DNA of 64,000 nucleotides from Staphylococcus phage AH12, in sequence record OR455461.1, one strand, 5' to 3'. The notes under the pieces were generated by a model. The model made no database searches. It was given only the letters and a program-made list of their open reading frames with translations, and was not told the origin of the DNA. How positions within the stretch are numbered: the first letter of the stretch is position 1; each line of letters opens with the position of its first letter. Positions 15,524 to 39,711 of the stretch are shown piece by piece. A program made the position numbers and the translations under genes.

Positions 15524-15566
15524 TATTTTGATGCAACATAAATTTATAGTAAATAAATTAAATTGG

Positions 15567-15607
15567 GGATATGACATTTATTATGTGTCATATCCTCTTT
15601 ATTATTT
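15567..15607 (+). terminator. rho-independent terminator
   Basis: Stem GGATATGACA / TGTCATATCC followed by TCTTTATTATTT. Confidence 0.55.
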
Positions 15608-15625
15608 AAAAGGAAGTGAAATAAA

Positions 15626-17101
15626 TTGGCTGAAGAAAAAGATAAAAAAGAGTCTAAAGAACAAGAACCTTTAAAAGTTGCTGACGATGATATGGCTTTA
15701 ATACCTCAAGCTGATGAGAAAAAAGGTGATTATGACTATCATGAATATGATCCTACTCAAAAAGATACTGGTGCTTTTATGGATGCTTTGGGTAATCAAA
15801 GACAAGCAACTGAATATTTAACAGATAAAAATGCTAAAGATAAAAAACAATTAAGAAATGTTAAAGGTGAACTAGATGTATTTGGAATGCCTATGTACTA
15901 TTCTAGTTTAGATGATCCTAATAGAAGAATATATAAAAGAACATTTGAATTAGATTTACCTTTAGTATTTATAATGCCGGGTATGCCTAAATTAAATGGT
16001 AAATTATTTGGTAAACCAGGAGAAGGTAAATTATGGAGTTTTGGTGAAGGAATGGATAGATTAGTAAACTCTGGGTTATCTTTAGTTGGTATCGGTAATA
16101 CTAAAGATGGTCGTATGATAAGCTTTGAACCTAAAATGGCTGAATATTATAAATATGTACAAACTATGGCTTCTCAAGTTCATGCATCAATGGGATTAAA
16201 AGGATCATTTGATCTAGGTGGATCTCTACAAGATGATAAAAACTATGGACTAGCTTACTATGCAGATAAATCAACTAGTATATCAGAATCTGCAATGCAT
16301 GAATATAATCAATCTGATATTGCTTCTCAAGTTAATAATAAAAACCAAGAAATACGAGAACAAAAAGAAATGGCTCGTATTGGAGGAGCTTCTATTTTAG
16401 GTAAAATTACAAGATCTATTAAAGATAGTGTTAATGATATGGTAGCAAATATGCCAGTTATTGGTGGTATTGTAGGTAACTTTATGGAACATTTAGATGG
16501 TGCAAGTATGTACTATCCCGATGTATGGATGAACTCGACATTCGATAGAACTTATAATCTAGAATTTAAATTCTATAGTGCTTATGGAGATCCTCAATCT
16601 ATCTTTGATAATGTATATTTACCATTCTTGTCACTATTAGTTTTAGCATTACCATTACAAGACTCAATTTTCTCTTATAAGCAACCATTTATTATTAGAG
16701 CTAATTGTCCTGGTAGATTTGAATGTAACACAGGTATAATAACTTCAATGAATATAGTTCGTGGTGAAGAGGGTACATGGACTGCAGATGGTTTCCCAAG
16801 AGAAATTACTGTATCTATTAATATTAGAGATATGTATCCAAACTTAATGGCATCAAAATCATTCCAACGTATGAAATTTAACACAGGATTATTATCTTAT
16901 ATTGATTGCTTAGCCGGAATTAGAAGGGATCAACTATCTATTATTGATAAAGCTCAAATTAATATGAAAACTCAATACTCTAGAAGTATGCAGGTAATTA
17001 AAGGAAGAGTCTTTCAACAACAAATTGATGATGCAATCTATGGATATAAATCCCAATATAATCCTCATCCAAATAGCCCGGGATTGAATATGTTTACTTA
17101 A
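15626..17101 (+). CDS. hypothetical structural protein, 491 aa
   Basis: TTG start with an AAAGGAAG RBS. Lies in the tail/virion module downstream of the giant proteins. Confidence 0.55.
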   Translation: MAEEKDKKESKEQEPLKVADDDMALIPQADEKKGDYDYHEYDPTQKDTGAFMDALGNQRQATEYLTDKNAKDKKQLRNVKGELDVFGMPMYYSSLDDPNRRIYKRTFELDLPLVFIMPGMPKLNGKLFGKPGEGKLWSFGEGMDRLVNSGLSLVGIGNTKDGRMISFEPKMAEYYKYVQTMASQVHASMGLKGSFDLGGSLQDDKNYGLAYYADKSTSISESAMHEYNQSDIASQVNNKNQEIREQKEMARIGGASILGKITRSIKDSVNDMVANMPVIGGIVGNFMEHLDGASMYYPDVWMNSTFDRTYNLEFKFYSAYGDPQSIFDNVYLPFLSLLVLALPLQDSIFSYKQPFIIRANCPGRFECNTGIITSMNIVRGEEGTWTADGFPREITVSINIRDMYPNLMASKSFQRMKFNTGLLSYIDCLAGIRRDQLSIIDKAQINMKTQYSRSMQVIKGRVFQQQIDDAIYGYKSQYNPHPNSPGLNMFT

Positions 17102-25806: not shown

Positions 25807-26052
25807 TTATACTAATATAAAATCAATTATCTTTACTTTTTTATCTCTAACATGTCTAAATTGATCATCATAATTTTCTAAGTAATAATGAACTTTATTA
25901 TCCAAGTCAGAGCTATTAGAGATGACCTCTTTAGCTCCACTTGGTAAATCTATTACTACTATTAATATTTCTGGTTCTTTATTTAAATTTCTATATTTAC
26001 TTTCAAATTTTTCTTTTAATGTCATATAATTTCCTCCAATTAGATAGAACAA
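25807..26052 (-). CDS. small hypothetical protein, 81 aa, between nrdE and nrdF
   Basis: ORF track entry that overlaps the nrdE stop by 13 nt. Confidence 0.35.
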   Translation of the reverse strand: MFYLIGGNYMTLKEKFESKYRNLNKEPEILIVVIDLPSGAKEVISNSSDLDNKVHYYLENYDDQFRHVRDKKVKIIDFILV

Positions 26053-27494
26053 GATTCACATTCAACAATACCTTGAGAATTTTCATCATGGTCTGGTGAA
26101 TAAATACGAGTATAATACATAGATTTAATACCTTTACTGTAAGCATAGTTACGTAATCTACTAATATCACGAGTAGTAGTTTCTTTATCTAAAGAATCTT
26201 TTTTCCATTCATACAATTCAGGATCAAGTTCATTCATTAAATAAATATTCATAGAGATACCTTGATCAACATGATATTGAGCTTCTGAATATAAATCAAT
26301 CATATCACGCATATCTAATTGATAAGCATTTTTCTTAAAGTAATCAAAGTTATCTGGTGTAATACCTGGTGCTGGATAGAAAGTAGTACCTGTTTTACCT
26401 TCTACACGTTCTTCAATTAATTCAACAATAGGGTGAATTGAAGGTGATACTTCTCTAACATAACCAATAGAACCATTAGGTGCTACAGCTAATCTATTTT
26501 GATTGTATAAACCATCCATAACGATATTATTTCTTAATTGTTCCCAATCACTATCAGATGGAATAAAGATATCTTCAAATAATTCTTTAACTTTTTCAGT
26601 ACGTGGTTGAATATTTTTACCAATATAACGTTTATCAAAGTAAGAACCATCAGCATATTCAGTTTTTTCAAATAAATAGAATGATTCATCTTTTTCTTTA
26701 GCAATTTTATTTGATTCAACTAACGTCCAATAGTTTAATAGCATGAAATAAATATTAGTGAAATCTTTAGATTCTTCTGATCCATATTGAATATGATTTT
26801 CAGCTAAATAAGTGTGTAATCCCATTGCACCTAAACCAACTGTATGGAATAAATCATTAGCTTTCTTAACTGTAGGTACAGCTTCAATATTAGATTTTTC
26901 TGCTACTGAATTTAAACTTCTTAACATAGTTCCAACTGATTTACCAAAGTCTTCTGATTTCATTAAACCAGGTACGATAGTTGAAGCTAAGTTACATGAA
27001 ACATCTGTTCCTGTTTTAACATATTGTTGATTATCGTCAACTAATGAAGGGTATTGTACTTGCAGAATTTCACTACACAAATTACTCATTTTAATTGTAC
27101 CATGACTAATTGGATTAGCTCTATTAGCTGTATCAATATTAATAATATAAGGATATCCAGATTCTTGTTGTAATTTACTAATAGTAGTTTCTAAATCACG
27201 AGCATACATTTTCTCTTTACCAATACGTTTATCATCTACAAAGATATCATAGTAAGTATTAAAGTCAATACTATCGAAATCTAAATCATAATATTTTTTA
27301 ATATCATATGGACTAAATGTATATAATGATTTATTTTCTTTAACTAATTGGTAATATTTATCTGGAACTGTTAAACCTAATGAAATAGTTTTTAGTCTTA
27401 CTTTCTCATCAGCATTTTCTTTCTTAGTATCTAAGAATTTCACTACATCTTTATGGAAAATATTTAAGTAAAGTGCACCTGCACCATTTCTTTG
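26040..27494 (-). CDS. nrdE: ribonucleotide reductase large subunit, exon 2 (C-terminal 484 aa)
   Basis: SNLCSEI active-site motif and a C-terminal CESCSI tail. The ATG the ORF finder reports at 27497 belongs to the intron; its G is the terminal omega-G. Confidence 0.85.
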   Translation of the reverse strand, partial: QRNGAGALYLNIFHKDVVKFLDTKKENADEKVRLKTISLGLTVPDKYYQLVKENKSLYTFSPYDIKKYYDLDFDSIDFNTYYDIFVDDKRIGKEKMYARDLETTISKLQQESGYPYIINIDTANRANPISHGTIKMSNLCSEILQVQYPSLVDDNQQYVKTGTDVSCNLASTIVPGLMKSEDFGKSVGTMLRSLNSVAEKSNIEAVPTVKKANDLFHTVGLGAMGLHTYLAENHIQYGSEESKDFTNIYFMLLNYWTLVESNKIAKEKDESFYLFEKTEYADGSYFDKRYIGKNIQPRTEKVKELFEDIFIPSDSDWEQLRNNIVMDGLYNQNRLAVAPNGSIGYVREVSPSIHPIVELIEERVEGKTGTTFYPAPGITPDNFDYFKKNAYQLDMRDMIDLYSEAQYHVDQGISMNIYLMNELDPELYEWKKDSLDKETTTRDISRLRNYAYSKGIKSMYYTRIYSPDHDENSQGIVECESCSI

Positions 27495-27656
27495 CATTTA
27501 TATTAACTATATGAAATTCATATAGATTAGACTATATCTTATACTATTAATAAGTATTATTATATTTAGTCGTTGAACAATCATCTTGATTGATGCTGAT
27601 TAAGTTTATAAACTTTTCCAGCAATTAATATTATTTATACTGAGCCATTAAAATTA
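27495..27656 (-). ncRNA. group I intron, 162 nt, ORF-less, in nrdE
   Basis: P AAUUGCUGGAAA, Q AAUCAGCAUC, R GUUCAACGACUAAAUAU and S AGAUAUAGUCU elements are present. P1 pairs exon CUGGGU with the guide sequence GCUCAG. P5, P6, P8 and P9 hairpins are present. The spliced junction YVNQLG|QRNGAGALYL matches the conserved RNR alpha region. Confidence 0.8.
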
Positions 27657-28403
27657 ACCCAGTTGATTTACATATGATAAAGTATCTTCAAATACTTTCA
27701 TAACTGGAACTACTCCTGAAGCAGCACCTTCAACACCTTTAATTGGATCATTATCAGCACGTAGATTACTTAAAGATACTCCTATTCCTCCACCACGTTT
27801 ACTTAATTGTGCCACATTAGAGATATTTCTATAAATAGATGATAAAGAATCCTCCATAGTTAATAAGAAACAACTTACTAACTCACCAGAACGTACTCTA
27901 CCTGCATTAAGAAATGTAGGTGTAGCTGGTTGGAAAGTACCTGTAATAATTTCATTAGCAATATCTCTAGCTAATTCTTCATCACCGTCAGCTAAGTATA
28001 AAGCTACAAATAAAATTCTATCTTCATATAGTTCTAATAAGATTTCCCCTGCATCATCTTTCATTGCATACTGTTCATAGAATTTTTTAGCTCCTAATAA
28101 ACGAGTAAAACGATGTTTATAAGCCATTAATTCTTTCATTAATCCTTTAATAAATTCAAAATTATAGTTATTGATCATATCTCCATCAATATAATCATTA
28201 TTAACTAAGTAATTAATTTTTTCCTTATATGTTTTAAAATATCTTACATTCTTATTAACTTTTTCATCGAAGTATTTACTAACAGAAGCTAACTCAAATT
28301 CTAGATCTAAATTACCGTCTTTTAATTGTGAACCTCTTGAATTCAATTCATTGTATGAATAATCTTTGAACTTTTCTGAGTTTAAGTCTATTTCTTTTGT
28401 CAT
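27657..28403 (-). CDS. nrdE: ribonucleotide reductase large subunit, exon 1 (N-terminal 249 aa)
   Basis: N-terminal RNR alpha region (ATPTFLNAGR..., GGGIGVSLS). Ends in GGU, directly before the intron-borne UAA. Confidence 0.85.
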
Positions 28404-28423
28404 TTTATCCTATCTCCTTATAT

Positions 28424-28846
28424 CTATACTAACTCTAAATCTTTATTTATAATACTAGAGTTACTTAAGTCTTTTAATTTTTTATTTAATTCGATATGTT
28501 CATTTTTAATTCCGAATAATTCTATACCCATTAATAATTCTAAATTAAAATCATTACATAATTTCTTAGGTGTAGTTAAGAATTCATAATTAAGATTTCT
28601 ATTACCTGAACCTACAATGCCAATACATCTACTTAGATTCATTCCATTACTAAAGAACTTTTTAACGTGATTATAAATTGCATGTGGAGTATTATAAGAT
28701 CCACATATAAGTATATAATCTTCATTCATTTCTATTTCTTCACAGTTATTTCTATTAAGTTCAATAGGTTCTCCAACTATTGTTTTGTCTAATTTATCTG
28801 CAAATTTTTTACTATTACCTGTTAGAGTAAAATAAACTAATTTCAT
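28424..28846 (-). CDS. nrdI: NrdI-like flavodoxin, 140 aa
   Basis: The N-terminal MKLVYFTLTGNSKKF resembles the NrdI VYxSxTGN motif, and the gene sits directly upstream of nrdE. Confidence 0.55.
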   Translation of the reverse strand: MKLVYFTLTGNSKKFADKLDKTIVGEPIELNRNNCEEIEMNEDYILICGSYNTPHAIYNHVKKFFSNGMNLSRCIGIVGSGNRNLNYEFLTTPKKLCNDFNLELLMGIELFGIKNEHIELNKKLKDLSNSSIINKDLELV

Positions 28847-28941
28847 GAAAATCTCTCCATTTAATTATATTTTCTAAATTCGAGGTTTAAAATAGATCCA
28901 TCATAAGTTATCCTTATGATAGATCATTTTAATTCATATAT

Positions 28942-29145
28942 TTAATATCCTACTTGACGATATTCCCAGTTCCAAAAACTACCATCAGACTCAAAGGTAT
29001 AATTCCAACCTTCAATACTGAAATTTTCTTTATAAGGTCCTTCGTATAAAGGTTTATCATTTAATTCTTTAACTTGACCGTTTTGAACCATTTCAGCAAG
29101 TTTTTTATAATCTACTGATTCTTTATTTTCAAAGATAGTATTCAT
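28942..29145 (-). CDS. small hypothetical protein, 67 aa
   Basis: ORF track entry inside the nrd cluster. Confidence 0.4.
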   Translation of the reverse strand: MNTIFENKESVDYKKLAEMVQNGQVKELNDKPLYEGPYKENFSIEGWNYTFESDGSFWNWEYRQVGY

Positions 29146-29163
29146 AATGATAAATCATCCTTT

Positions 29164-29397
29164 CTATAATGAAGATAATACTTGATTTAATTTAGCTGGA
29201 TCGTTTCCAACTACAACATCAGTACCGAAATCAATTACTGGTAAAGATTGATAGCCTTTAGATAAAAGATCTTCTTTAGCTTTTTCATCCTCATCAATAT
29301 TAATTTCTGTATATTCAATTCCTTGATTACCTAAAACCATTTTACTAAACATGCATTTACTACAATTATTCTTTGTATAAAATTTAATTTCTGGCAT
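29164..29397 (-). CDS. nrdH: glutaredoxin-like NrdH redoxin, 77 aa
   Basis: CSKC (CxxC) motif near the N-terminus and a thioredoxin-fold-sized protein sitting upstream of nrdI and nrdE. Confidence 0.7.
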   Translation of the reverse strand: MPEIKFYTKNNCSKCMFSKMVLGNQGIEYTEINIDEDEKAKEDLLSKGYQSLPVIDFGTDVVVGNDPAKLNQVLSSL

Positions 29398-29435
29398 AAC
29401 TAACTCTAACCTCTTTCTATTCTAATTTTTATAAT

Positions 29436-30188
29436 TTATTTTTGGTATCTAATTAAGATACTATTAATTACTTTGATAAAATCTTCGTTCTGTTCTAATT
29501 TATTACCGAATTTTCCAATATAATCAACATTTTCAGAAAGAGATTTTATATAATAAGGAGATTTTTCATAATTTTGTAACATGTATGAACCTAATGAACA
29601 CATAAATTTATACAATGAATTTGTTTCTTTGAAACTATCACTGTCTAATGCATTTTTTAGATTTTCATAGATCTCTTCTAGATCAATATAATTGTATTCA
29701 TTATTTTCATTTCCATGAATTTTATTATGATTATAAATTTTCATATTTAATTTTTCATTTACTTTTTTAAGTTTATTTTCTTTAACAGGTAATTTACTAA
29801 TAGTAATATTATCTAACATATGTTTAGCTTCTTTACTATCTTTAATTTGTTCAATGATATTTTCAATTTGTTTAGCATCATTAATCTTTAAATCTTTTAA
29901 AGGTTTTAATCTTTCAGGAATATCTTCATCTTTTTCAAAAGTTAAATCACCATTAATGAAATCTAATTTCTCTTGATATCTTTGAACTTTAGAATCTACA
30001 GATAGTACATCATTGATATCAATATTATCTTTACCATAGTAAGTTGATAATTCTTTATTGATATCTTCCTTTTTTTCTTCGATTTCTTTTTCTAATTTAT
30101 CATTCTCTTCATCAAATTCTTCCATAGCATTTTGTAAATCTTTTTCTAGTTCTTCAACATATTTATTCTCTTCTACCATTTTTGACAA
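29436..30188 (-). CDS. hypothetical protein, 250 aa, charged/coiled-coil
   Basis: ORF track entry downstream of the terminase gene. Confidence 0.5.
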   Translation of the reverse strand: MSKMVEENKYVEELEKDLQNAMEEFDEENDKLEKEIEEKKEDINKELSTYYGKDNIDINDVLSVDSKVQRYQEKLDFINGDLTFEKDEDIPERLKPLKDLKINDAKQIENIIEQIKDSKEAKHMLDNITISKLPVKENKLKKVNEKLNMKIYNHNKIHGNENNEYNYIDLEEIYENLKNALDSDSFKETNSLYKFMCSLGSYMLQNYEKSPYYIKSLSENVDYIGKFGNKLEQNEDFIKVINSILIRYQK

Positions 30189-30194
30189 ATCTCC

Positions 30195-30995
30195 TTATTT
30201 ATATTTATTAATGAAATAATACTGTATTTCTCTAAATAATACATTATTATCTTCAAATGTGTCTCTTAATACATTAATAAGATTATTATCAAATCTAACA
30301 TCAGTAATTGATTGTTCTACTAACATTTTATCAATTTGATAATTATTCAATTCAGATTCTTCATCTAGAATTACAGTTTCAATAATATCTTCATTATCTC
30401 CAATATAAACTCCTTCAATAATATCTGGAATAGAATAAATCATTGCAGTGTATTCATTATCAATAGTTTTCTTTAAATTGTTATATGATAATGAAGTATT
30501 AATATCATCATTTAAATTATCTTCATAAGTCTTAGATAAGTGTACAATATTTTTTTCAATATGATTAATAAATAGATTATTAATCATTTCTTTTTTATTT
30601 AATACAAAGAAATAATATAATGATTTAATATACTGAGCTTTATCTTCAACTAAAATATCTTCTGAAAATTCAATAGATAATTGATAAGTATCTTGAATTG
30701 ATTCTAATATTTCATTTAAAATATCATTATAAACTTCTTTAGTTCTATTTAAAATATCATTATCTTCTTTATATCTTTCTAATACAAAATTAAATCGGAT
30801 TTCAAAATATTCAAAAAAATTCTTATGGTGTTGATCCGTATAAAACTGTTTTGTGTTAGATTCATGAATTTGATCTTTAATATTATCTACCATAATATCT
30901 TCAGAGATATTCATAATAATCTCATCGTATTCCTCTTTAACCATTTCTAAATCATCTTTATCATCAATTAAGTATGTCTTAGTCAAAATTTTCAC
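30195..30995 (-). CDS. hypothetical protein, 266 aa
   Basis: ORF track entry. Confidence 0.5.
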   Translation of the reverse strand: MKILTKTYLIDDKDDLEMVKEEYDEIIMNISEDIMVDNIKDQIHESNTKQFYTDQHHKNFFEYFEIRFNFVLERYKEDNDILNRTKEVYNDILNEILESIQDTYQLSIEFSEDILVEDKAQYIKSLYYFFVLNKKEMINNLFINHIEKNIVHLSKTYEDNLNDDINTSLSYNNLKKTIDNEYTAMIYSIPDIIEGVYIGDNEDIIETVILDEESELNNYQIDKMLVEQSITDVRFDNNLINVLRDTFEDNNVLFREIQYYFINKYK

Positions 30996-31127
30996 TTCCC
31001 ATTTATCTTTTTATTTTTATATAATATATTATTCTAACGAATAATTAAAATTTTCTTTTATCTTTTCTAAAATTAACTCTACTATACAACTTAGTTAATA
31101 CTATTTTTTAAAAATTTCCAATAAAAT

Positions 31128-31159
31128 AGAGTAATGACGAAGTTAATCATCATTACTCT
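31128..31159 (-). terminator. rho-independent terminator after the terminase gene
   Basis: Stem AGAGTAATGA / TCATTACTCT with a T-rich tract on the minus strand. Confidence 0.45.
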
Positions 31160-31167
31160 TATATATT

Positions 31168-32403
31168 TTATTTGAATAAATCCATAATACGTTTATTATT
31201 GTTGTCCATTGGTTTTTGTTGTTGACCAAATATAGAATTACTCATATCATTTCCTTCAATAACACTATTGATACGTTTTATTGAAGTAATATCTTTTCTT
31301 CTAGCTTCTTGTTCTTTTCTGATTCCTTCTGCATTTTCTCCGTTAGATGAGAGTTTAGAACCATATTTAATTTTTACAAATTTATTAATATCCTTTTCAT
31401 AATAATATGCATATAAACAGAATAAATAAGACATCATTAAGTCATCGTGACCTCCCGGTGGATGGTCAATACGTCCTTTAATCATTTGTAAAGATTTTAC
31501 TTCTTGGAAGAGTGCTTTATTATTAATTAAATATGGTTTTTCTTCAACAAGCATAGATAGTATTTCATTTAACATTATATCACGAGATTTTTTAGTTGTA
31601 TCAATACCATATCTACGAGTTTCTTTTTTAACTTTTTCATTTTTACCATATCTAGATACTTCATTAAATAAACCTTTATCTTCTACTTGTTTTTCAGCTA
31701 CACGAGTTTTAAGTGTATAGAATAGATTAGATTCTAAACCATCATAAGTTATCATATGATCAATTACTGTTAAACCTGCATAGTTACGTTCAGGTATTAA
31801 TATAGCGTTAGGTATATAGAAACTAACCAATTCTTTAATTAATTTTCTGAATGTAGGTCCATTAATTACGTTATTTTTAAATGTCATCACTGGTTCCAAA
31901 GTAGCTGGATCCACTACAGTAAATGCTGTATTATCTCGTCCTAAACCACCAGACATATCAATACCAATAAGCCAATTTTTCTCTGTAATATTATCCATAT
32001 ATTTAATCATATTTACATAATAAGTTTTTCCATCAATATTAAATTCAAGAGTATTATATACTTCCTTATTAGCATACATAGATATTTCAGACATTTGCTC
32101 TTCAGAGAATAATGAATCATCAGAACTATAAGCCCATTCCAATAATATTTCACGTTTAACTGCTTCTAAAGAACCAATTTGTCTTTTTTGTTTTGCTAAC
32201 CAATCTTCATCTTTACCTAATTCTTTATATGAATATTCTATATACATGAATTCATTATTTGAATTATCTTCCATGTATTTTTCTAATTTAGAAATTCCTT
32301 CTTCTTCACCATTAATGAAATAATCATATATTTTTTCATTCCATTGAGCTGCTTCATTCATTTGTTGAAAGAAAAATTGCCCATTGTCTTCATCAAGAGT
32401 ACT
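31168..32403 (-). CDS. terL: terminase large subunit, exon 3 (nuclease domain)
   Basis: IDMSGGLGRDNTAFTVVD RNase-H-like nuclease motif. The apparent TTG start at 32406 is intron sequence; its G is the omega-G. Confidence 0.8.
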   Translation of the reverse strand, partial: STLDEDNGQFFFQQMNEAAQWNEKIYDYFINGEEEGISKLEKYMEDNSNNEFMYIEYSYKELGKDEDWLAKQKRQIGSLEAVKREILLEWAYSSDDSLFSEEQMSEISMYANKEVYNTLEFNIDGKTYYVNMIKYMDNITEKNWLIGIDMSGGLGRDNTAFTVVDPATLEPVMTFKNNVINGPTFRKLIKELVSFYIPNAILIPERNYAGLTVIDHMITYDGLESNLFYTLKTRVAEKQVEDKGLFNEVSRYGKNEKVKKETRRYGIDTTKKSRDIMLNEILSMLVEEKPYLINNKALFQEVKSLQMIKGRIDHPPGGHDDLMMSYLFCLYAYYYEKDINKFVKIKYGSKLSSNGENAEGIRKEQEARRKDITSIKRINSVIEGNDMSNSIFGQQQKPMDNNNKRIMDLFK

Positions 32404-32559
32404 CAAATTTATTTATTCTTTATAATTATATAAAGTTTAGACTATATCACAATAATTATAATAATTATTATCCATTATTTAGTCGTTGAACATCATTTAG
32501 ATGATGCTGATTAATTTTATAATATTTCAGCAATTAAATAGAAAAGCCCAGTTAATTTT
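32404..32559 (-). ncRNA. group I intron, about 156 nt, ORF-less, terminase intron 2
   Basis: P, Q, R and S core elements (minus-strand rc of ...cagcaattaaa..., gatgctgatta, tttagtcgttgaac, agactatatc) plus P6, P8 and P9 hairpins. The 3' end AAAUUUG| is firm. The 5' splice site after CCU (P of TTTP) is inferred from frame and a short P1 (GCCU/GGGC), so it is less certain. Confidence 0.65.
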
Positions 32560-32715
32560 AGGCGTAGTTGTAATTAGAAGTCCATAAGGAGTTCCGTTTC
32601 TTTTAGCAATTGCAGAAGCTGTGGAGTTAGCTGGACGCATGGCCTCAAACATTGTTTGATTATGTTTAATAAATGCCCACTCATCTAGCCAGAATAATGG
32701 CACAGTACCACCTCT
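32560..32715 (-). CDS. terL: terminase large subunit, exon 2 (Walker B, motif III)
   Basis: LFWLDEWAFI aligns with T4 gp17 MIYIDECAFI, followed by the ITTTP coupling motif. Confidence 0.75.
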
Positions 32716-32921
32716 CATTTTTCGTTAACTATATGAATTTCATATAGATCAGACTATATCTTAACAATTTCAATGATATTAATATTTAGTCGTTGAACTA
32801 CTATTTTAAGTAGATGCTGATTTATTTAATGATTTTCTCAGCAATTAATTAATTTTATAGCGAGCTAAGGTTATAAATTAATTTTTAAAAATAATTTCCA
32901 TATATGCCATGGAATGATTTA
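32716..32921 (-). ncRNA. group I intron, 206 nt, ORF-less, terminase intron 1
   Basis: P1 pairs exon GCGGGU with the guide sequence GCUCGC. P, Q, R and S are present, and P9 is CUAUAUGAAAUUCAUAUAG. The intron ends ...AAAAUG|, and its omega-G is the G of the ATG the ORF finder reports at 32718. Confidence 0.8.
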
Positions 32922-33569
32922 ACCCGCTTTATTTGCTTGCTCTTTATTGTTTGGAGGACTGACTGTCTTAATAGTGTTATTATTGGATGCTAATCTAAAT
33001 TCATTTTCAGCATCTTTATCATTCTTATCACCAAAATTTGCCATCACATAATCCGGTAAACATTTTTCTTTAAATAAGTTCTTAAGACGTTTTAAATTCT
33101 CCACTGTATCAGCATAAGCTTTATGTGTAAATAACATTGTATAGTTATTACCTACTAATAACATAATCCATGAATAATAACATACTGCAGAATATGTTTT
33201 ATAGTGCTGACGAGGTAACATTATTGCAGTATCTAAGTTATGCAACATACAGAATGTCATAGCCAAGTTACCTCTATGAAGTTCATACATTACTTTTCCA
33301 CCTGGAACAGGAACTCTAATAACTTCTCTTAAATAAAACCATATATTAAGTTTAGCTTCCCTAATAACACGAGTTTTCATTTCATTATCTAAATCTTCAT
33401 CCCAAGGATCAACACCAATTAATTTCTTATCATATAGAGTTAATGGTAAACCATAATTTTGTATATTATTGTCTTTAAGTTCTTTAGCAACTTTTAAAAA
33501 GCTTATATTATTAGTCTTATAATCGTAATAAACTTTTTTCTTTAATTTTGTTATAGCCATAATCTTCAT
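32922..33569 (-). CDS. terL: terminase large subunit, exon 1 (ATPase N-terminus)
   Basis: LPRQHYKT is a deviant Walker A (compare T4 SRQLGKT). Ends in GGU, directly before the intron-borne UAA. Confidence 0.75.
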
Positions 33570-33583
33570 TCACTTCTTTCTTA

Positions 33584-34753
33584 CTATCTTGTCTTAGTAT
33601 TAATTCTATTAGAATATTTTATTATTCTTTGAATTTCATCTAATTGTTTCTTGAGTTCTTTTTTAACTTCATTAGAATTATTATTGTTACTAATTTCAAA
33701 TTTTAATGTATTAATAACTGCATCAATTGAATCTGTTGGATAATCTTTATAACTTTTAATAAAACCACTCATAGGGTATAAAAGTCCTCTCATAGCTTTA
33801 GCTATTAAATTATTAGATCTTTTTTCAGATTTCATTCTAAATGCTTTATACACTAAATCATAAAATTTAACCATTTCTACAGAATATCCATAAAGAGCAG
33901 GTAATTGGTTAGCAGATCTTTCTGAAAGATTATAATCCATAGTAGTTTTTCTATTGAAACTTGCACTTGTTAGTAACATTCCTGTTCCCATAAATGAACC
34001 CATTGATAAGCTAGCACCTATAAACACAGCAGTTAAACACATTACTAATGTTGACATTGCAAGAATCATAGGAGCTGCTAATACTCTATTTCTTCTATTG
34101 TCAGTTTCTATTTCTTTAGTGTACTTAAACTGTACTGGTTTATTATCTCTATATTTGAGTTCGAATGTAGGAGTTTTGCCACCAGAGAGTACATTAATTT
34201 CTACAGGGAAAAATAAATTATGTCCTATTTCATGTAATAATAAAAAAGTATACATTCTACCATTAAGAGTAGTAAATTCTTTTTGACCTGATGCTTTCTT
34301 TTCGATAAAATATCTCAATGAAGATAATTCAATATTTACTTCAATTTCTCTAGGTTTAGAATAGTAAACACCATTCTTTTCTTCAATAACAATTTTAGTG
34401 ATTCCATCTGTAATATTTCTAATATCTTCAGGTTTAATTAATGTGTGTGCTACTGAACCTACTTTAAATTTATCTTTTCCACGTTTATCAGCTTCAATAA
34501 ATTTTAATTTCATATTAGTGTTAAATAATTTCTTAGTAATATCTGATATTCTTTTTGCAATATCATTATATTCATTCTTATCAATTACATCAAAATCAGA
34601 TTTTTCGAAGTTATATTTACTAATTAATGAATCAAATTCTTCATCTATTTCTCTAAGTAATGAAGTATTTTTACCAAAGTTAAAAGCATCTTCATTTAAA
34701 TTCATTACTTCTTTTATTTTTTTCATTTGCATTTCTTCTTGTAAAGATACCAT
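33584..34753 (-). CDS. membrane-anchored HExxH zinc-metallopeptidase-like protein, 389 aa
   Basis: LLLHEIGHNLF motif followed by two or three hydrophobic helices (LAAPMILAMSTLVMCLTAVFIGASL...). Lies between the terminase and capsid genes. Confidence 0.5.
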   Translation of the reverse strand: MVSLQEEMQMKKIKEVMNLNEDAFNFGKNTSLLREIDEEFDSLISKYNFEKSDFDVIDKNEYNDIAKRISDITKKLFNTNMKLKFIEADKRGKDKFKVGSVAHTLIKPEDIRNITDGITKIVIEEKNGVYYSKPREIEVNIELSSLRYFIEKKASGQKEFTTLNGRMYTFLLLHEIGHNLFFPVEINVLSGGKTPTFELKYRDNKPVQFKYTKEIETDNRRNRVLAAPMILAMSTLVMCLTAVFIGASLSMGSFMGTGMLLTSASFNRKTTMDYNLSERSANQLPALYGYSVEMVKFYDLVYKAFRMKSEKRSNNLIAKAMRGLLYPMSGFIKSYKDYPTDSIDAVINTLKFEISNNNNSNEVKKELKKQLDEIQRIIKYSNRINTKTR

Positions 34754-34771
34754 ATAATTTTCCTTTCTTTT

Positions 34772-34800
34772 TATAAAATAAACCCATACACCTCAGAGAG
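34772..34800 (-). terminator. terminator hairpin after the capsid gene
   Basis: 9-bp stem ACCCATACA / TGTATGGGT with a T-rich tract on the minus strand. Confidence 0.45.
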
Positions 34801-34837
34801 ATGTATGGGTATATAAATAACAAAAGTAAAGTTACTC

Positions 34838-36433
34838 TTAACGAGCGTATACTGAACCGTTGTTGTTTTTGATTGTAATACGTCCAATGATCGGAACGAA
34901 TGATTCAACTGTATATCTACGAGTCATCATCATGTTAGGAACATTAGGGTTACGAGTATTCAAGTATCCTCCACCATTTACAACATTGAATGTGTAAGGG
35001 TAGAACATGAATGTTTTATAGTTGTCTTGTTGAGGAATTGCAATAATAGTCAATTCACCTTGACGAACTAAGTCAGAACCGATAATACGGTAGTTAGCTG
35101 TACCAGAAGCAGCACCTAATGAATAGTTAATTTTAATTCCATTAGAGTAAGAATCTTCAGTACCACCATTAAATGTCCAAGAAACGTTAGGGATTAAACG
35201 AACGTCAACTGGGTTACCTACGATAACGAATTGTACATCGTAAAGTTTGTAATCATTTTTCATTGATTGAGTAGTATGGTCAATTACTTCACGTAGACCT
35301 TCTAACCAATCTTTAGGGTGAGCACTGTAATCACTATGTGGATAAACATCGAAGCTGAAGTGATATTTAGCGTCAGTTTCTCTGTATTCGTGATCTAAGA
35401 ATTCAATGATATCTAAGTCAACTTTTTGACTAGATAATTGAGACATTGTTTCAGATAAACGAGCAACTCCATCGATATCATAAGTAGCTTTCATATCTTG
35501 AATTACTTCAAGAGGTACTGTAGCCTCGATGTGTTGAGCTGTATCGATAGTGATATCTTTACGATCTAAACCAAGCTCGATGTTAGTAGCTGAAGTATGT
35601 TGTTCAGAAGCTACATAACCTTTAATTTTAATTGCTTCTAATTTACCAGAAGTTGAAGCTAAAGCTAAAGTACCGTTAGAAACGTCAACTTTACCTAATA
35701 CTGTATCAACAGCAACTTCACCGTCACCATTTGTAGGGTATTTAACTTCTGCCATTAGAGAGTCATTTTCCATTTTAATAACTTGAGAACCTAATTCAAC
35801 AAATCCTTTTTCATTTGTACGAACATCAAAAGAATCGCTCCATTTAGCTTCTACAACTTTGAATTTACGGTCAACACGATCAATGCCTTTACGAACTTCT
35901 TTACCTTCTTTTAAGCCATCGAATAAATCGTAAGCTTCAACTTTACCACCAGAAATTGCAACTTCTTCTTTAAGAGGAACTAATCCTACTAAAGTTTCAG
36001 GTGTGTTATTAATTGATTCAGGTAATGCATGTTTGTTTCCATCAGCATCTACAACGTAAGGTGTTAAGATTGGCACTGTGAATTGTGGTTTATTAGCAAC
36101 TTGAGTTGGTAAAGCTTCAGTTAAAGCTAAACGAGCCCAAAGTTTAACTAAGATAGGCATAGATAATGAAGCATAAGGTTGGATAGGCCCCATTGAAGAC
36201 TCTAATAAGATTTCTTCACGAGTGTTATCTAACATACTTTCTAAAGAAAGTTGCTCCTCTTCATCAAAACCTTCTAATAATTGATCTTTATAACTTTCAA
36301 ATACTACGTCATCAGTAGCAATTGAAGCGAAATCATTACCAACTGTACTTAATTTATATTGTTCGTTGATATTTTGTTCGATATCCTCTAAGAGTTTAGA
36401 GAATTCATCTTTAATTCTATTTGCACTCAACAT
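34838..36433 (-). CDS. putative major capsid protein, 531 aa
   Basis: Size and position (scaffold-like genes upstream, terminase downstream), a strong hairpin after its stop, and an SMPILVKLWARLALTE...VPILTP segment reminiscent of gp23-type capsid proteins. Confidence 0.55.
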   Translation of the reverse strand: MLSANRIKDEFSKLLEDIEQNINEQYKLSTVGNDFASIATDDVVFESYKDQLLEGFDEEEQLSLESMLDNTREEILLESSMGPIQPYASLSMPILVKLWARLALTEALPTQVANKPQFTVPILTPYVVDADGNKHALPESINNTPETLVGLVPLKEEVAISGGKVEAYDLFDGLKEGKEVRKGIDRVDRKFKVVEAKWSDSFDVRTNEKGFVELGSQVIKMENDSLMAEVKYPTNGDGEVAVDTVLGKVDVSNGTLALASTSGKLEAIKIKGYVASEQHTSATNIELGLDRKDITIDTAQHIEATVPLEVIQDMKATYDIDGVARLSETMSQLSSQKVDLDIIEFLDHEYRETDAKYHFSFDVYPHSDYSAHPKDWLEGLREVIDHTTQSMKNDYKLYDVQFVIVGNPVDVRLIPNVSWTFNGGTEDSYSNGIKINYSLGAASGTANYRIIGSDLVRQGELTIIAIPQQDNYKTFMFYPYTFNVVNGGGYLNTRNPNVPNMMMTRRYTVESFVPIIGRITIKNNNGSVYAR

Positions 36434-36617
36434 AATTTTTTCTGCTCCTTTTCAAATATATTAGCGTGTAGTTTTATATTATTAATTTTATTATATAAAT
36501 TTGTTAAGAAATAAAATAACCATTATATTCAAGGGTATTTTTACTTTCATATGTTATTGTTATTAAATTTAAAAAGAATAATAAAACTATTATTAAAAGT
36601 AATTAAAATCATTTATT

Positions 36618-37283
36618 TTACTTTTTACTACGCTTTTTTGTACTTTCTAATTTATTGTATTCTTTTAAATAATTGTCAAATATTTCTTTGTAAGTAGTTT
36701 CAAATTTTTTATATAACTTCTCAGATTTATCTACATCGACAATATTTATAAATTTATTGTTAAATAAATTTATATTATCTTTAAGTTGATCCAGAGATTT
36801 TGTAGTTAATTCAGTTATATCAAACATATCTTTTCTCTCTGAATCTGAAAAATTTTCCATATTTCTGTCATTGATAATGTAGTTAAATTTGTCCATTACA
36901 TCTTTTAATTCAATTAATTTATTAAATATTTGTAATTTTAAAAACTTATCTGAATTACTTTCTTTGGGTTCTTCTGGTGTTTCTTCTGGATTATCTGTAT
37001 CAGTTTCTTCAGATTCAGGTTGTTCAAGATCATTATCTAATCCATCTTCAGTTTCTTCTTGATCTTCCGTAGAATCGTCATTAGAATCATCATTAGAATT
37101 ATCTTCTTCAGTTTCTTCATTATTCTCTTCTTCTGATGAAGTTGATTCAGTATCATCTAATGAATTCTGATCTTGATCATTTTCATCATCTTCAGCTTCA
37201 TTAAGAATATTTTGTTTCATTAATTTATTTATTGATTCAGTGAGTAAATCTCTATTAATATCCATAGTCATTACCACTGTCAT
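36618..37283 (-). CDS. highly acidic scaffold-like or internal-core-like protein, 221 aa
   Basis: Long D/E/S/T-rich tract directly upstream of the capsid gene. Confidence 0.45.
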   Translation of the reverse strand: MTVVMTMDINRDLLTESINKLMKQNILNEAEDDENDQDQNSLDDTESTSSEEENNEETEEDNSNDDSNDDSTEDQEETEDGLDNDLEQPESEETDTDNPEETPEEPKESNSDKFLKLQIFNKLIELKDVMDKFNYIINDRNMENFSDSERKDMFDITELTTKSLDQLKDNINLFNNKFINIVDVDKSEKLYKKFETTYKEIFDNYLKEYNKLESTKKRSKK

Positions 37284-38289
37284 TTACATCTCCACGAGAG
37301 ATAGCATTTTTAGTTTTATCTATAGTTTTCTTTTGGAAATTTGCTTTTTTCAATTGACCTTCTAAATCTGATTTTAATATTCTTAATTCTTTTCTTTTAT
37401 TTTCATCATCAACTGTTTCTAATTTATCTTCTAATGATTGAATTCTTTCTTCTAGTACAATAATTAATCTATTAAGTTCACTATTTTTAGTACTATTATA
37501 CACAATAGCAACTAATAATCCTAATAATGCAGTTTTAGCTTTACCGATAACGCCAGAACTTACTTTTAATCCAATACAGAAGATTATTGCTGTTAAGATA
37601 GCTCTTACAAAACGAATTCTATTCGCTTTAGCTAATTGTTTATCATCCATATTTTTAGTTGAAGCAGTAGCTTTTTTAACAGAACCGATTAATTTATTTA
37701 AATTCTTTTCAGCAACTTTAGGTTCTTTAGATCGTTCAAAAGATGTATCAATATCATTAAGATAATCCTCATCATCATCTTCATAAGCTTCATTTAAATA
37801 ATTCATACTACCTTCCATTAAGAAATTAATAATTGCTTTTTTCTCTAAATTAGAATTAGAAGGTGTTTCAGCTAAAGCTACAGTTAATTGTTTAAAATTA
37901 AATTCTGCACTTTTATTTGAACTAAAGTCTTCTTTATATAAACTATCTATATAACCATTATTAGGAATACGATTATTAATATAAAGTGTATTATATCTAT
38001 CTTTAAGAGTTTCTATCTTATGAAGAACCATATTTATTGCCATTTCAGATTGTTCATTTTCAATTTCGTATCTTTCTAATGAATCTTTAATACCTACTAA
38101 ATATTTTACAATTTTTCTAATTTGATCATTTGTAAAACTATCAGTATTAGCATACTTCTCAATATCAACTAGATAATCATAAGCTTCATTAGGAAAAGAA
38201 TTTTCATCCGTTTGTTCTTTAATATTAAGTAATGTATCTTTTACTTCTTCAAAACTTTTCAAAGATTTTCCTCCTATCATATATTTCAT
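37255..38289 (-). CDS. hypothetical head-module protein, 344 aa, one hydrophobic helix
   Basis: ORF track entry that overlaps the next gene by 29 nt. Hydrophobic segment AILTAIIFCIGLKV...LLGLLVAIVY. Confidence 0.45.
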   Translation of the reverse strand: MKYMIGGKSLKSFEEVKDTLLNIKEQTDENSFPNEAYDYLVDIEKYANTDSFTNDQIRKIVKYLVGIKDSLERYEIENEQSEMAINMVLHKIETLKDRYNTLYINNRIPNNGYIDSLYKEDFSSNKSAEFNFKQLTVALAETPSNSNLEKKAIINFLMEGSMNYLNEAYEDDDEDYLNDIDTSFERSKEPKVAEKNLNKLIGSVKKATASTKNMDDKQLAKANRIRFVRAILTAIIFCIGLKVSSGVIGKAKTALLGLLVAIVYNSTKNSELNRLIIVLEERIQSLEDKLETVDDENKRKELRILKSDLEGQLKKANFQKKTIDKTKNAISRGDVNDSGNDYGY

Positions 38290-38376
38290 TAATCTAATAA
38301 AAGATTGTTAAATTCAGAAGAATAACATAGAAATATTCTTAATTTACAATCAAAATTTGAAAGGAAGTATAAATAA

Positions 38377-38599
38377 ATGTCTAAAGATATTAAAGCTTAC
38401 ATTATTAATGAATCTAATACAACTTCTCAACCAGAAGTAGTTCAAGATAATAATAAATCAGTTAGATTCATTGCTGAGTTACAAGAAGCTGATAGACAAA
38501 ACCGTAATGGTCGTGTTTATCGTAAAGATGTTATCCAAAGTGGTTTAGATAGTCCAGTAGTACAAGAAAAATTAGCAAGAAGAACTTTTTATGGTGAGT
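38377..38599 (+). CDS. prohead-protease-like protein, exon 1
   Basis: Ends ...RTFYGE plus one further nt. The NGRVY and GE-GHP segments resemble T4 gp21-type prohead proteases; this rests on recollection, not on a search. The TAG at 38602 is intron sequence. Confidence 0.55.
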
Positions 38600-38753
38600 T
38601 TTAGGTTAAAATGGCTCACGTTAAATTATATTAATTGCTGAAATCTTATTTAAAGTAATCAGCATCAACTTAATACAAGTTGTTCAACGACTAAATATAT
38701 AACCTAGATGATATAGTCTAATCTTTATTAAAATAATAAAGAATAATAATTTG
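38600..38753 (+). ncRNA. group I intron, 154 nt, protease intron 1
   Basis: P1 pairs exon GUGAGU with the guide sequence GGCUCAC. P UUAAUUGCUGAAA, Q AAUCAGCAUC, R GUUCAACGACUAAAUAU and S GAUAUAGUCU are present. Ends ...AAUUUG|. Confidence 0.75.
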
Positions 38754-39013
38754 CAGGTCATCCTTTAAGTGATGAACCTAAACGTCAAATGTATATTGAT
38801 CAACGTAATATTTCTCATATTATCACTAGAACTTGGTGGAATGGTAATAAATTAATGGGAGAAGTAGAAACAGCTCAAACATCAGCTGGTAAGGATATGA
38901 AAGGTTTAATTGGACAAAAATCTGATGTATCTTTCTCAATGCGTGGTTTTAGTAAAATAGAAAGAAAACCTAATGGTGAAGTAGAAGTTACTAAACCTTT
39001 AAGATTAATCTGT
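38754..39013 (+). CDS. prohead-protease-like protein, exon 2
   Basis: Reads (S)GHPLSDEPKRQ...SMRG...KPLRLIC. Ends UGU, directly before the intron-borne UAA. Confidence 0.55.
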
Positions 39014-39202
39014 TAAATTATAGCAGCTTTATATAGTGATATATAATGAAAAAGAATATTAATTGCTAAGAAGTTTAATTAAGCCAATTAGCATCAACTT
39101 AATACAAGTTGTTCAACGACTAAATATATTCGCTCTTACTAAGAGTATGATATAGTCTCGTCTATATGGAAACCATATAGCTAAGATGTACGTATGACTG
39201 GG
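39014..39202 (+). ncRNA. group I intron, 189 nt, protease intron 2a, with a P2 hairpin
   Basis: Variant P (UUGCUAAG) and Q (UUAGCAUC) carry compensatory changes. R, S, P8 and P9 (CUAUAUGG/CCAUAUAG) are present. Ends ...GAUGUACG|. Confidence 0.65.
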
Positions 39203-39213
39203 TAAAAAATTAT
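39203..39213 (+). CDS. inferred 11-nt micro-exon (UAUGACUGGGU; Y-D-W plus 2 nt) between the tandem introns
   Basis: Bounded by the 3' end of intron 2a and a CUGGGU| 5' splice site, which pairs with guide sequence GCUUAG of intron 2b. The four exon lengths (223, 260, 11, 349) sum to 843, a multiple of 3, and the frame is restored only if the micro-exon is included. Confidence 0.55.
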
Positions 39214-39362
39214 TGCTTAGTATAAATAATATTAATTGCTGGAAATCTTTATTAAGATAATCAGCATCGGATTAAATTCCGTTCAACGACTAAATATATT
39301 ACCTAATATAAATTAGGAAGATATAGTCTCGTCTATATGAAAATCATATAGTTAAGATAACG
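39214..39362 (+). ncRNA. group I intron, 149 nt, protease intron 2b; near-identical 5' half to the nrdE intron
   Basis: Guide sequence UGCUUAG, then UAUAAAUAAUAUUAAUUGCUGGAAA, which is identical to the nrdE intron. Q, R and S are present, and P9 is CUAUAUGAAAAUCAUAUAG. Ends ...GAUAACG|. Confidence 0.7.
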
Positions 39363-39711
39363 TGTAATTCCATCACATCAAGATTCTTATATCCAAAATA
39401 TAATTTCAGAGAATCATAATAATTACAATACTAGTGATTTACAAATGGTTAATGAATCAATTGATATGTTTTCTAACGGTAAAGTTACAGAATTTTCTCC
39501 TAGAGAAGTTTTAACTTATATTAAAGAAAATTCAGATAATATCAAATATATCGCTGAAGATATGGGATTTGATAAAGCTGATGAATCTAATATCATTTAT
39601 GATAAAGGATCTCAAATAGCTTCAATTAAAGAAAGTAATAAAACTATTAAAGTTTTCTTAGAAGAATCTGTTCTTAATGGACTTGATGATTTCTATAGAA
39701 ACTTTAAATAA
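39363..39711 (+). CDS. prohead-protease-like protein, exon 3
   Basis: Begins (V)VIPSHQDS..., which may carry a D-x-V-x-x-P-S catalytic-serine context. The in-frame open stretch starts just after the UAA at 39358-60. The ORF track reports only the part from the Met at 39445. Confidence 0.55.

Follow-up and report, generated by a model that had tools for sequence, protein, structure and literature searches.

Three genes in a stretch of 64,000 nucleotides (nt) of Staphylococcus phage AH12 (record OR455461.1; the whole stretch is called the window below) are interrupted by six short segments, which are very probably group I introns of a single multi-copy family that lack open reading frames (ORFs) and are transcribed within the mRNAs of nrdE, the large terminase gene terL and a gene for a prohead core protease. 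From the anatomy of the segments, the covariation in their helices and the exact collinearity of the remaining sequence with intron-free alleles, we infer that they are excised and that the RNA itself catalyses the excision. The window has a G+C content of 26.5% and belongs to the S6 / MarsHill / Machias / PB50 group of Staphylococcus jumbo phages; a megablast search with its positions 24-42 kb matched only nine S6-group phages, at identities of 82-97%. In a mechanical list of ORFs nrdE is broken into two minus-strand pieces, the large terminase into three minus-strand pieces and the small plus-strand gene at 38377-39711 into three. The splitting of the first two had been pointed out in an earlier description of this DNA made without database searches (the sequence-only reading), and the list bears it out.

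All three genes are whole in phage SA1, nrdE is also intact in MarsHill, S6 and Madawaska, and terL is also intact in S6. The nrdE gene (26040..28403, minus strand; exons 28403-27657 and 27494-26040) holds one intron, I1 (27495..27656, 162 nt), between Gly249 and Gln250 (YVNQLG|QRNGAG), and after its excision encodes a protein of 733 amino acids that aligns without a gap, at 98% identity, to the uninterrupted NrdE of MarsHill. The terL gene (31168..33569, minus strand; exons 33569-32922, 32715-32560 and 32403-31168) holds I2 (32716..32921, 206 nt), between Gly214 and Arg215 and 7 residues ahead of the Walker B sequence LFWLDE, and I3 (32404..32559, 156 nt), between Pro266 and Ser267. With both excised the junctions read ...ANKAG|RGGTVPLFWLDEWAF and ...LLITTTP|STLD, and the product of 679 amino acids, which matches PHROGs terminase families, is collinear with SA1 TerL, including when SA1 TerL is the query of a tblastn search. 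The protease gene (38377..39711, plus strand; exons 38377-38599, 38754-39013, 39193-39203 and 39363-39711) holds three introns: I4 (38600..38753, 154 nt), which splits the codon of Ser75 in phase 1 (GAG U|CA); I5 (39014..39192, 179 nt), which follows Cys161; and I6 (39204..39362, 159 nt), which lies in phase 2 within the codon of Val165. The spliced protease gene is 843 nt long (280 amino acids), the same length as the SA1 gene and collinear with it. Its product matches the Pfam family Peptidase_S77 (prohead core protease) with E=5.3e-9 over residues 37-179, a region that covers all three intron sites, in agreement with the earlier label of prohead-protease-like. The alignment of spliced products, which the sequence-only reading had proposed as a check, thus gives gapless or collinear results for all three genes, and the intronless alignments confirm the junctions it had placed in nrdE and just before the terminase Walker B.

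Between I5 and I6 lies an exon of only 11 nt, TATGACTGGGT (39193..39203, plus strand), which encodes Tyr-Asp-Trp and the first two bases of the Val codon. The SA1 protease reads ...LRLIC-YDWV-VIPSHQ in this region, YDW and two Val bases being supplied in the window by the 11-nt exon, and intronless alleles read TGT TAT GAC TGG GTA. Against these alleles the end of I5 and the start of I6, previously set at 39202 and 39214, were each 10 nt too far downstream and are corrected to 39192 and 39204; the supposed 149-nt intron is 159 nt long, so that the lengths run from 154 to 206 nt and not from 149 to 206 nt. The coordinates of I1 to I4 had been exact. To judge from the sequence, the first five bases of the micro-exon can pair as P10 with bases upstream of the I5 guide sequence, while its last 7 nt form the exon strand of the I6 P1 helix.

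At four of the six junctions not even a shift by one base is possible, and all four have a U before the intron and a G as its last nucleotide. A U occupies position -1 in every intron-bearing allele, whereas in empty alleles this position is often taken by A or G: Gly is GGA or GGG in empty alleles and GGU in intron-bearing ones, Pro is CCG versus CCU, and Ser at the I4 site is AGU versus U|CA. This serine codon (window 38596-38601) is U|CA in all intron-bearing alleles and AGU in intronless SA1 (L003, about 15830), a switch of codon family that supplies the U required at the splice site.

The six introns, with a G+C content of only 19-27%, share the core of group I ribozymes. As the sequence-only reading had claimed, four blocks occur in the correct order (P-Q-R-S) and orientation in each, always on the sense strand of the host gene: P, AAUUGCUGRAA (J3/4-P4-J4/5); Q, AAUCAGCAUC (P4'-P6); R, GUUCAACGACUAAAUA (J6/7-P7-P3'); and S, AGAUAUAGUCU (J8/7-P7'). 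Each of the sequences GTTCAACGACTAAAT and GATATAGTCT has exactly six occurrences in the window, correctly ordered and on the strand that encodes the host gene. These blocks are nearly base-for-base equal to the classical group I consensus, the catalytic-core nucleotides of J4/5, J6/7, J8/7 and P7 are intact in all six introns, and the predicted guanosine-binding site, ACGACUA/UAGUCU of P7, is invariant in sequence among the six. Every intron is immediately preceded by a U and ends in a G (omega-G), with boundaries that the intronless alleles define independently, and the terminal G described earlier stands in all six.

All six introns can form a P1 helix of 4-7 base pairs (bp) in which a U·G pair marks the 5' splice site. 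It pairs ACUGGGU with GCUCAGU in I1, GCCU with GGGC (4 bp) in I3, GUGAGU with GCUCAC in I4, CUGU with GCAG (4 bp) in I5 and ACUGGGU with GCUUAGU in I6, and it is long and extended in I2. The sequence-only reading had ascribed such a helix to each intron and listed it for four; it can indeed be drawn for the other two, at only 4 bp. The conserved P9 hairpin that it described is found in 6/6, and I1 has all of P3-P9, but short P5, P6 and P8 hairpins are not present throughout, as P8 of I4 is replaced by an 11-nt linker and I2 has no convincing P5.

Exon and guide covary in P1 across the family (ACUGGGU/GCUCAGU, AGCGGGU/GCUCGCU, GUGAGU/GCUCAC, GUUGGGU/GCUCAAU and UGAGAGU/GCUCUCA). Covariation was scored on 136 model-aligned relatives from the window, four sister phages and IMG/VR contigs, of which 84 are distinct. 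Among these 84, 88.6% of paired cells hold a pair, as compared to 61% after shuffling and 32-49% when the partners are slid, and the covariation score is 0.54 versus 0.14 for shuffled alignments. Compensatory changes of several types occur at every pair of P6, P8 and P9, and G-C pairs of P4 are exchanged for A-U among relatives, as in I5 (UGCUAA/UUAGCA). P7 of the pseudoknot is 99% paired, its G-C pair being invariant in 80/80 distinct relatives. Unconstrained minimum free energy (MFE) folds give back most of P1 and P4-P9, with z values of -2.0 to -4.6.

A covariance model built from the six window cores, here called R1, produced exactly six matches when it was run on the window with filters off (I1, 126.5 bits; I2, 117.3; I3, 76.6; I4, 112.5; I5, 141.2; I6, 137.9); the range is thus 77-141 bits, and the next match scored 17 bits. 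The Rfam model RF00028, whose gathering threshold is 50 bits, found no group I match in a gathering scan of the whole window or in an E<=10 scan of 14 kb, owing to speed filters and the threshold. With full-length alignments on stretches of 281 to 801 nt it scored I5 at 45.5 bits (E=2.7e-10), I6 at 41.6 (E=4.2e-9), I1 at 36.9 (E=3.8e-8), I3 at 27.0 (E=7.7e-5), I4 at 25.8 (E=2.2e-4) and I2 at 16.5 (E=0.11). The RF00028 search that had been suggested with the sequence-only reading is therefore favourable for 5/6 introns (E 2.7e-10 to 2.2e-4) and for none at the gathering level, and its default settings give a false negative. The genome paper on phage DC4, in which Rfam was used, reported no introns, because the scores of this family fall under the 50-bit cut-off.

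Several observations weigh against the assignment of these segments to self-splicing group I introns. All six lie under the RF00028 gathering cut-off, and I2 reaches just E=0.11; in our reading this shows where the model reaches its limit, with A+U-rich introns reduced to the core, and does not speak against membership. Fitting of the covariation alignment to the model tilts the counts in favour of the structure, although the gap to the slid controls, and that in the number of pair types, is still wide. P3 consists of merely 4-5 A-U pairs in all of the introns and is weak in I2, where the MFE fold also lacks a convincing P5, and the alignment of orthologues confirms the P8-less linker of I4. 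Finally, there are no obvious tetraloop-receptor contacts, except for a possible L2 in I5, which makes autonomous self-splicing in vitro uncertain. The short form of I4 is shared with Machias, LY01 and Madawaska, and an ordinary P8 hairpin is found in the orthologue of PB50.

These same features could mean that the segments, mostly I4 and I2, are group I-derived introns that are unable to self-splice and that need a phage or host maturase or chaperone, or intact sibling introns. The linker of I4, the 16.5 bits and missing P5 of I2, the low G+C content and the absence of P2 from I1, I3, I4 and I6 all point in this direction, and core-only forms of other group I ribozymes usually require high Mg2+ or proteins. 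However, the short I4 is kept in an essential gene of four viable phages, which argues that it is at least efficiently removed, and the core nucleotides of J4/5, J6/7, J8/7 and P7 are undamaged in every copy. We regard a loss of self-splicing as rather unlikely, and it differs from the explanation that we prefer just in the requirement for a cofactor. Even if they catalyse their own excision, the six may need chaperones or protein cofactors in vivo, as they have no P2/L9 tetraloop contacts and a low G+C content.

If the six are group I introns, splicing would begin with formation of P1 between the last 4-7 exon bases and the internal guide sequence, with the U·G pair positioned where cleavage takes place. 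A stack of P4-P6 would assemble, as would the P3/P7 pseudoknot with its guanosine-binding G-C pair, and P8 (except in I4) and P9 would form. Free guanosine would then attack 3' of the terminal U of the exon, and the released 3'-OH of that exon would attack after the terminal G of the intron, joining the exons and restoring the reading frame.

It is very improbable that the segments are instead a dispersed intergenic repeat, similar to a repetitive extragenic palindrome or a miniature inverted-repeat transposable element or to a regulatory RNA, lying between genes that are truly split and separately translated. The separate ORFs of the mechanical list and the annotations of sister phages, in which the fragments are deposited as separate proteins, would fit such a repeat. 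Against this, the internal fragments have no start codons and one is just 11 nt long; the repeat is found on the sense strand only, inside coding sequence; and in sister phages the same sequence runs across the junction within single, unbroken genes. Separately translated fragments are further excluded by the two junctions that split codons, those of I4 (phase 1) and I6 (phase 2). Skipping at the protein or translational level, by inteins (known in this clade, for example in gyrA of Machias) or by a ribosomal bypass of the T4 gene 60 type, is less probable still, as there are no intein motifs, every frame contains stops, the longest open stretch is 30 codons, an in-frame stop occurs within the first two codons of I1, I2, I4 and I5, and segments of 154-206 nt with a conserved, covarying RNA structure fit a mechanism acting on RNA.

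The group I introns of the window are strongly reduced. The longest stop-free stretch of each is 23-30 codons, and the absence of a homing endonuclease ORF from all six, as the sequence-only reading had stated, is upheld, no open stretch exceeding 30 codons. P2 is present only in I5, where it is a hairpin with a GUGA tetraloop; it is absent from I1, I3, I4 and I6, and I2 has the extended P1 loop in its place. P7.1/P7.2, which together with P2 mark subgroup IA2, are not found, since only 11-38 nt, with one hairpin at most, separate P3' from J8/7.

A further case of reduction is seen in MarsHill, whose terL (L002 9362-9888, minus strand) consists in this region of four exons and three mini-introns, with a spliced product collinear with SA1 TerL. 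Intron A (L002 9888-9762, minus strand, 127 nt) has neither P2 nor P9, and its terminal G lies 7 nt past P7'. It is followed by a 14-nt micro-exon, CGTGGTTCTACTGT, by intron B (L002 9747-9591, minus strand, 157 nt), by a 70-nt exon and by intron C (L002 9520-9362, minus strand, 159 nt). Considering the window members of 154-162 nt without P2, the 154-nt I4 without P8 and the 127-nt MarsHill intron without P2 and P9, we tentatively suggest that the family might hold the smallest natural functional group I introns, with P2, P8 and P9 each dispensable in vivo. These pared-down introns of 127-162 nt all sit in essential genes of viable phages. If the suggestion is correct, either catalysis needs no more than a bare core or some 30 cores per genome are scaffolded by an as yet unknown factor of the phage or the host.

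The family extends well beyond the window. A blastn search with I1 matched 30 places in Machias, 34 in LY01, 21 in PB50, 12 in Madawaska and 10 in MarsHill, and R1 detected approximately 30 cores in 269 kb of Machias, mostly in genes for RNA polymerase, DNA polymerase, gyrB, terL, nrdE and the protease. Apart from the Machias orthologues no pair exceeds 90% identity, and since paralogues are just 68-90% identical the family appears to be old in this clade and not the product of a recent burst. A recent transposition from I1 to I6 was considered and rejected, as the core identity of these two (82%) falls within the 68-83% of other pairs. The exons upstream of I1 and I6 do end in one and the same heptamer, ACUGGGU, and those downstream are unrelated; one hypothesis, built on a single coincidence of one 7-mer, is that the target was chosen by the guide sequence, as in reverse splicing.

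As a motif of group I introns in general, the R element does not single out this family: many jumbo contigs of IMG/VR carry it, as do the genomes of 83 bacterial or archaeal species, with no Staphylococcus among the 83. On the IMG/VR jumbo contigs with an identical R element R1 gave more than 200 matches of 38-72 bits, often five to seven per 3 kb. Two of these contigs, both from uncultivated viruses, A+T-rich and in the range of 200-400 kb, have five to seven matches in about 3 kb (L075 3946-7050 and L037 4785-7953), and some of the stretches matched by R1 are merely 98-136 nt long.

Several findings speak for mobility of the family. Insertion sites are polymorphic for presence or absence among closely related phages. 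The nrdE site carries a mini-intron in the window, LY01 and Machias, is empty in MarsHill, S6, SA1 and Madawaska, and in PB50 holds the same intron as I1 with an HNH ORF in P8. In the protease gene the sequence TGT|TAT GAY|TGG GT|N offers three alternative insertion points within 11 nt: the window and Machias use the first and third, which leaves the 11-nt exon; LY01 (L126 21260-21660) uses the first and second, leaving a 6-nt exon, TACGAT, for Tyr-Asp; PB50 and Madawaska have a single intron at the second; and MarsHill, S6 and SA1 are uninterrupted here. MarsHill (L002 15592-16759) and S6 (L125, about 14669-15839) have a larger, group I-like intron with a LAGLIDADG ORF 4 nt upstream of the I4 site. 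We rejected it as an ORF-bearing version of I4 because of this offset, its different P7 (GACCA/UGGUC) and the lack of an R1 or Rfam match. In Machias three cores of the same family lie directly 5' of TnpB genes (L132 8936-10356, L131 36363-37788 and L129 8407-9818) that are annotated as 'transposase' and have HTH_OrfB_IS605, OrfB_IS605 and Cas12f1-like TNB domains; one of these TnpB-linked cores interrupts a virion protein gene. One ribozyme family is seen here in three guises: a mini-intron without an ORF, an intron with an HNH gene, and a fusion to TnpB.

Because they encode no endonuclease, the six introns should be unable to home on their own, and no endonuclease domain was found in the ten neighbouring non-intron ORFs at 25.8-41.9 kb of the window. 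They would persist through vertical descent and recombination, and their spread would probably depend on endonucleases that act in trans or that siblings with an ORF supply in cis; reverse splicing, directed to sites matched by the guide sequence, could possibly contribute as well. If such reduced introns are indeed functional, the three insertion sites in 11 nt, together with the matches between guide and exon, would also constitute a natural system in which to study the spread of introns without endonucleases, for example by reverse splicing.

Introns of this kind are missed by default annotation tools, and as a result deposited terL, nrdE and protease genes are listed as fragments, some of them misnamed. 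In the PB50 deposit (L001 18254-19440) the first protease exon is named 'terminase large subunit' and the second 'homing endonuclease', and nrdE and terL are also given as separate fragments. Residues 11-216 of the spliced TerL match the PHROGs family phrog_32359, a 'terminase large subunit' of 210 positions, which corresponds to the first exon (window 32922-33569). Residues 3-77 of the protease match phrog_31489, a 'head maturation protease' of 91 positions, again corresponding to the first exon (window 38377-38599). Both families were probably built from gene calls truncated by introns. With R1, TerL can be reconstructed exactly, including the MarsHill TerL that its authors failed to assemble. 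The introns, at 127-206 nt, also offer a set of group I cores that nature has trimmed to different degrees, with individual members lacking P2, P8 or P9, through which the minimal natural group I ribozyme and the compensation for lost peripheral contacts become directly testable.

Among known systems, phage Twort reportedly has three group I introns in orf142 and two in nrdE. The present case resembles it in the staphylococcal myovirus background, in the use of nrdE and a structural gene as hosts, in having three introns in one short gene and in insertion at conserved motifs. The Twort introns are said to be approximately 250-430 nt or larger and to belong to subgroup IA2, with P2 and P7.1/P7.2 and in some cases endonuclease ORFs; in contrast, the window introns, at 154-206 nt, are too short to accommodate P7.1/P7.2 and in most cases have no P2, and the blastn search with I1 matched nothing that resembles the introns of Twort or K. 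The Azoarcus pre-tRNA-Ile intron (subgroup IC3, 205 nt), usually cited as the smallest natural one of group I that self-splices, is G+C-rich, lies in the anticodon loop of the tRNA and keeps P2, P8 and two GNRA tetraloop-receptor contacts. The window introns share with it a compact, ORF-less build and a minimal set of helices. Unlike it, they are A+U-rich, mostly without P2 and located in mRNAs, and most are 40-50 nt shorter than the size usually cited for Azoarcus.

IStrons are group I introns fused to an IS200/605 element (PMC4227781, PMC10690162). The three Machias paralogues 5' of TnpB have this arrangement; the six of the window do not, as each ends about 12 nt past P9 and has no IS part. 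In the Jug jumbo phages of the gut 2513 group I introns have been described, with an average length of about 206 nt and a mean of 18.5 per genome, which split terL, ribonucleotide reductase and polymerase genes and whose splicing is supported by metatranscriptome reads (PMC12880540). The hosts of these phages are Bacteroides/Phocaeicola and not Staphylococcus, and the likeness to our family lies in size, number and host genes. The copies in Staphylococcus phages score far higher among themselves (75-141 bits) than the matches on IMG/VR contigs do (38-72 bits).

A close precedent is the work of Korn et al. (bioRxiv 10.1101/2020.12.14.422802), who annotated genes interrupted by introns for MarsHill, Madawaska and Machias; such genes are likewise annotated in Bacillus phage AR9. 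The clade is the same and so are the genes (the protease and terL, and nrdE in Machias), and the Machias protease introns are identical or 99% identical to I4-I6. In that study (bioRxiv 10.1101/2020.12.14.422802) exons were inferred by protein alignment only and TerL was not reconstructed, and it was not described that the RNAs are group I ribozymes, how large they are or how the family is made up. The Machias record annotates the protease with three exons, and the 11-nt exon was thus missed. The sequence-only reading had called the six an ultra-compact family, and at 154-206 nt they do rank with the smallest such introns observed, though less unprecedented than that reading supposed in view of Korn et al. 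and PMC12880540. This kind of group I intron, and the presence of introns in this phage clade, were already known; the present analysis adds the identification of the ribozymes, the exact junctions, the micro-exon, the structure of the family and the degree of its reduction.

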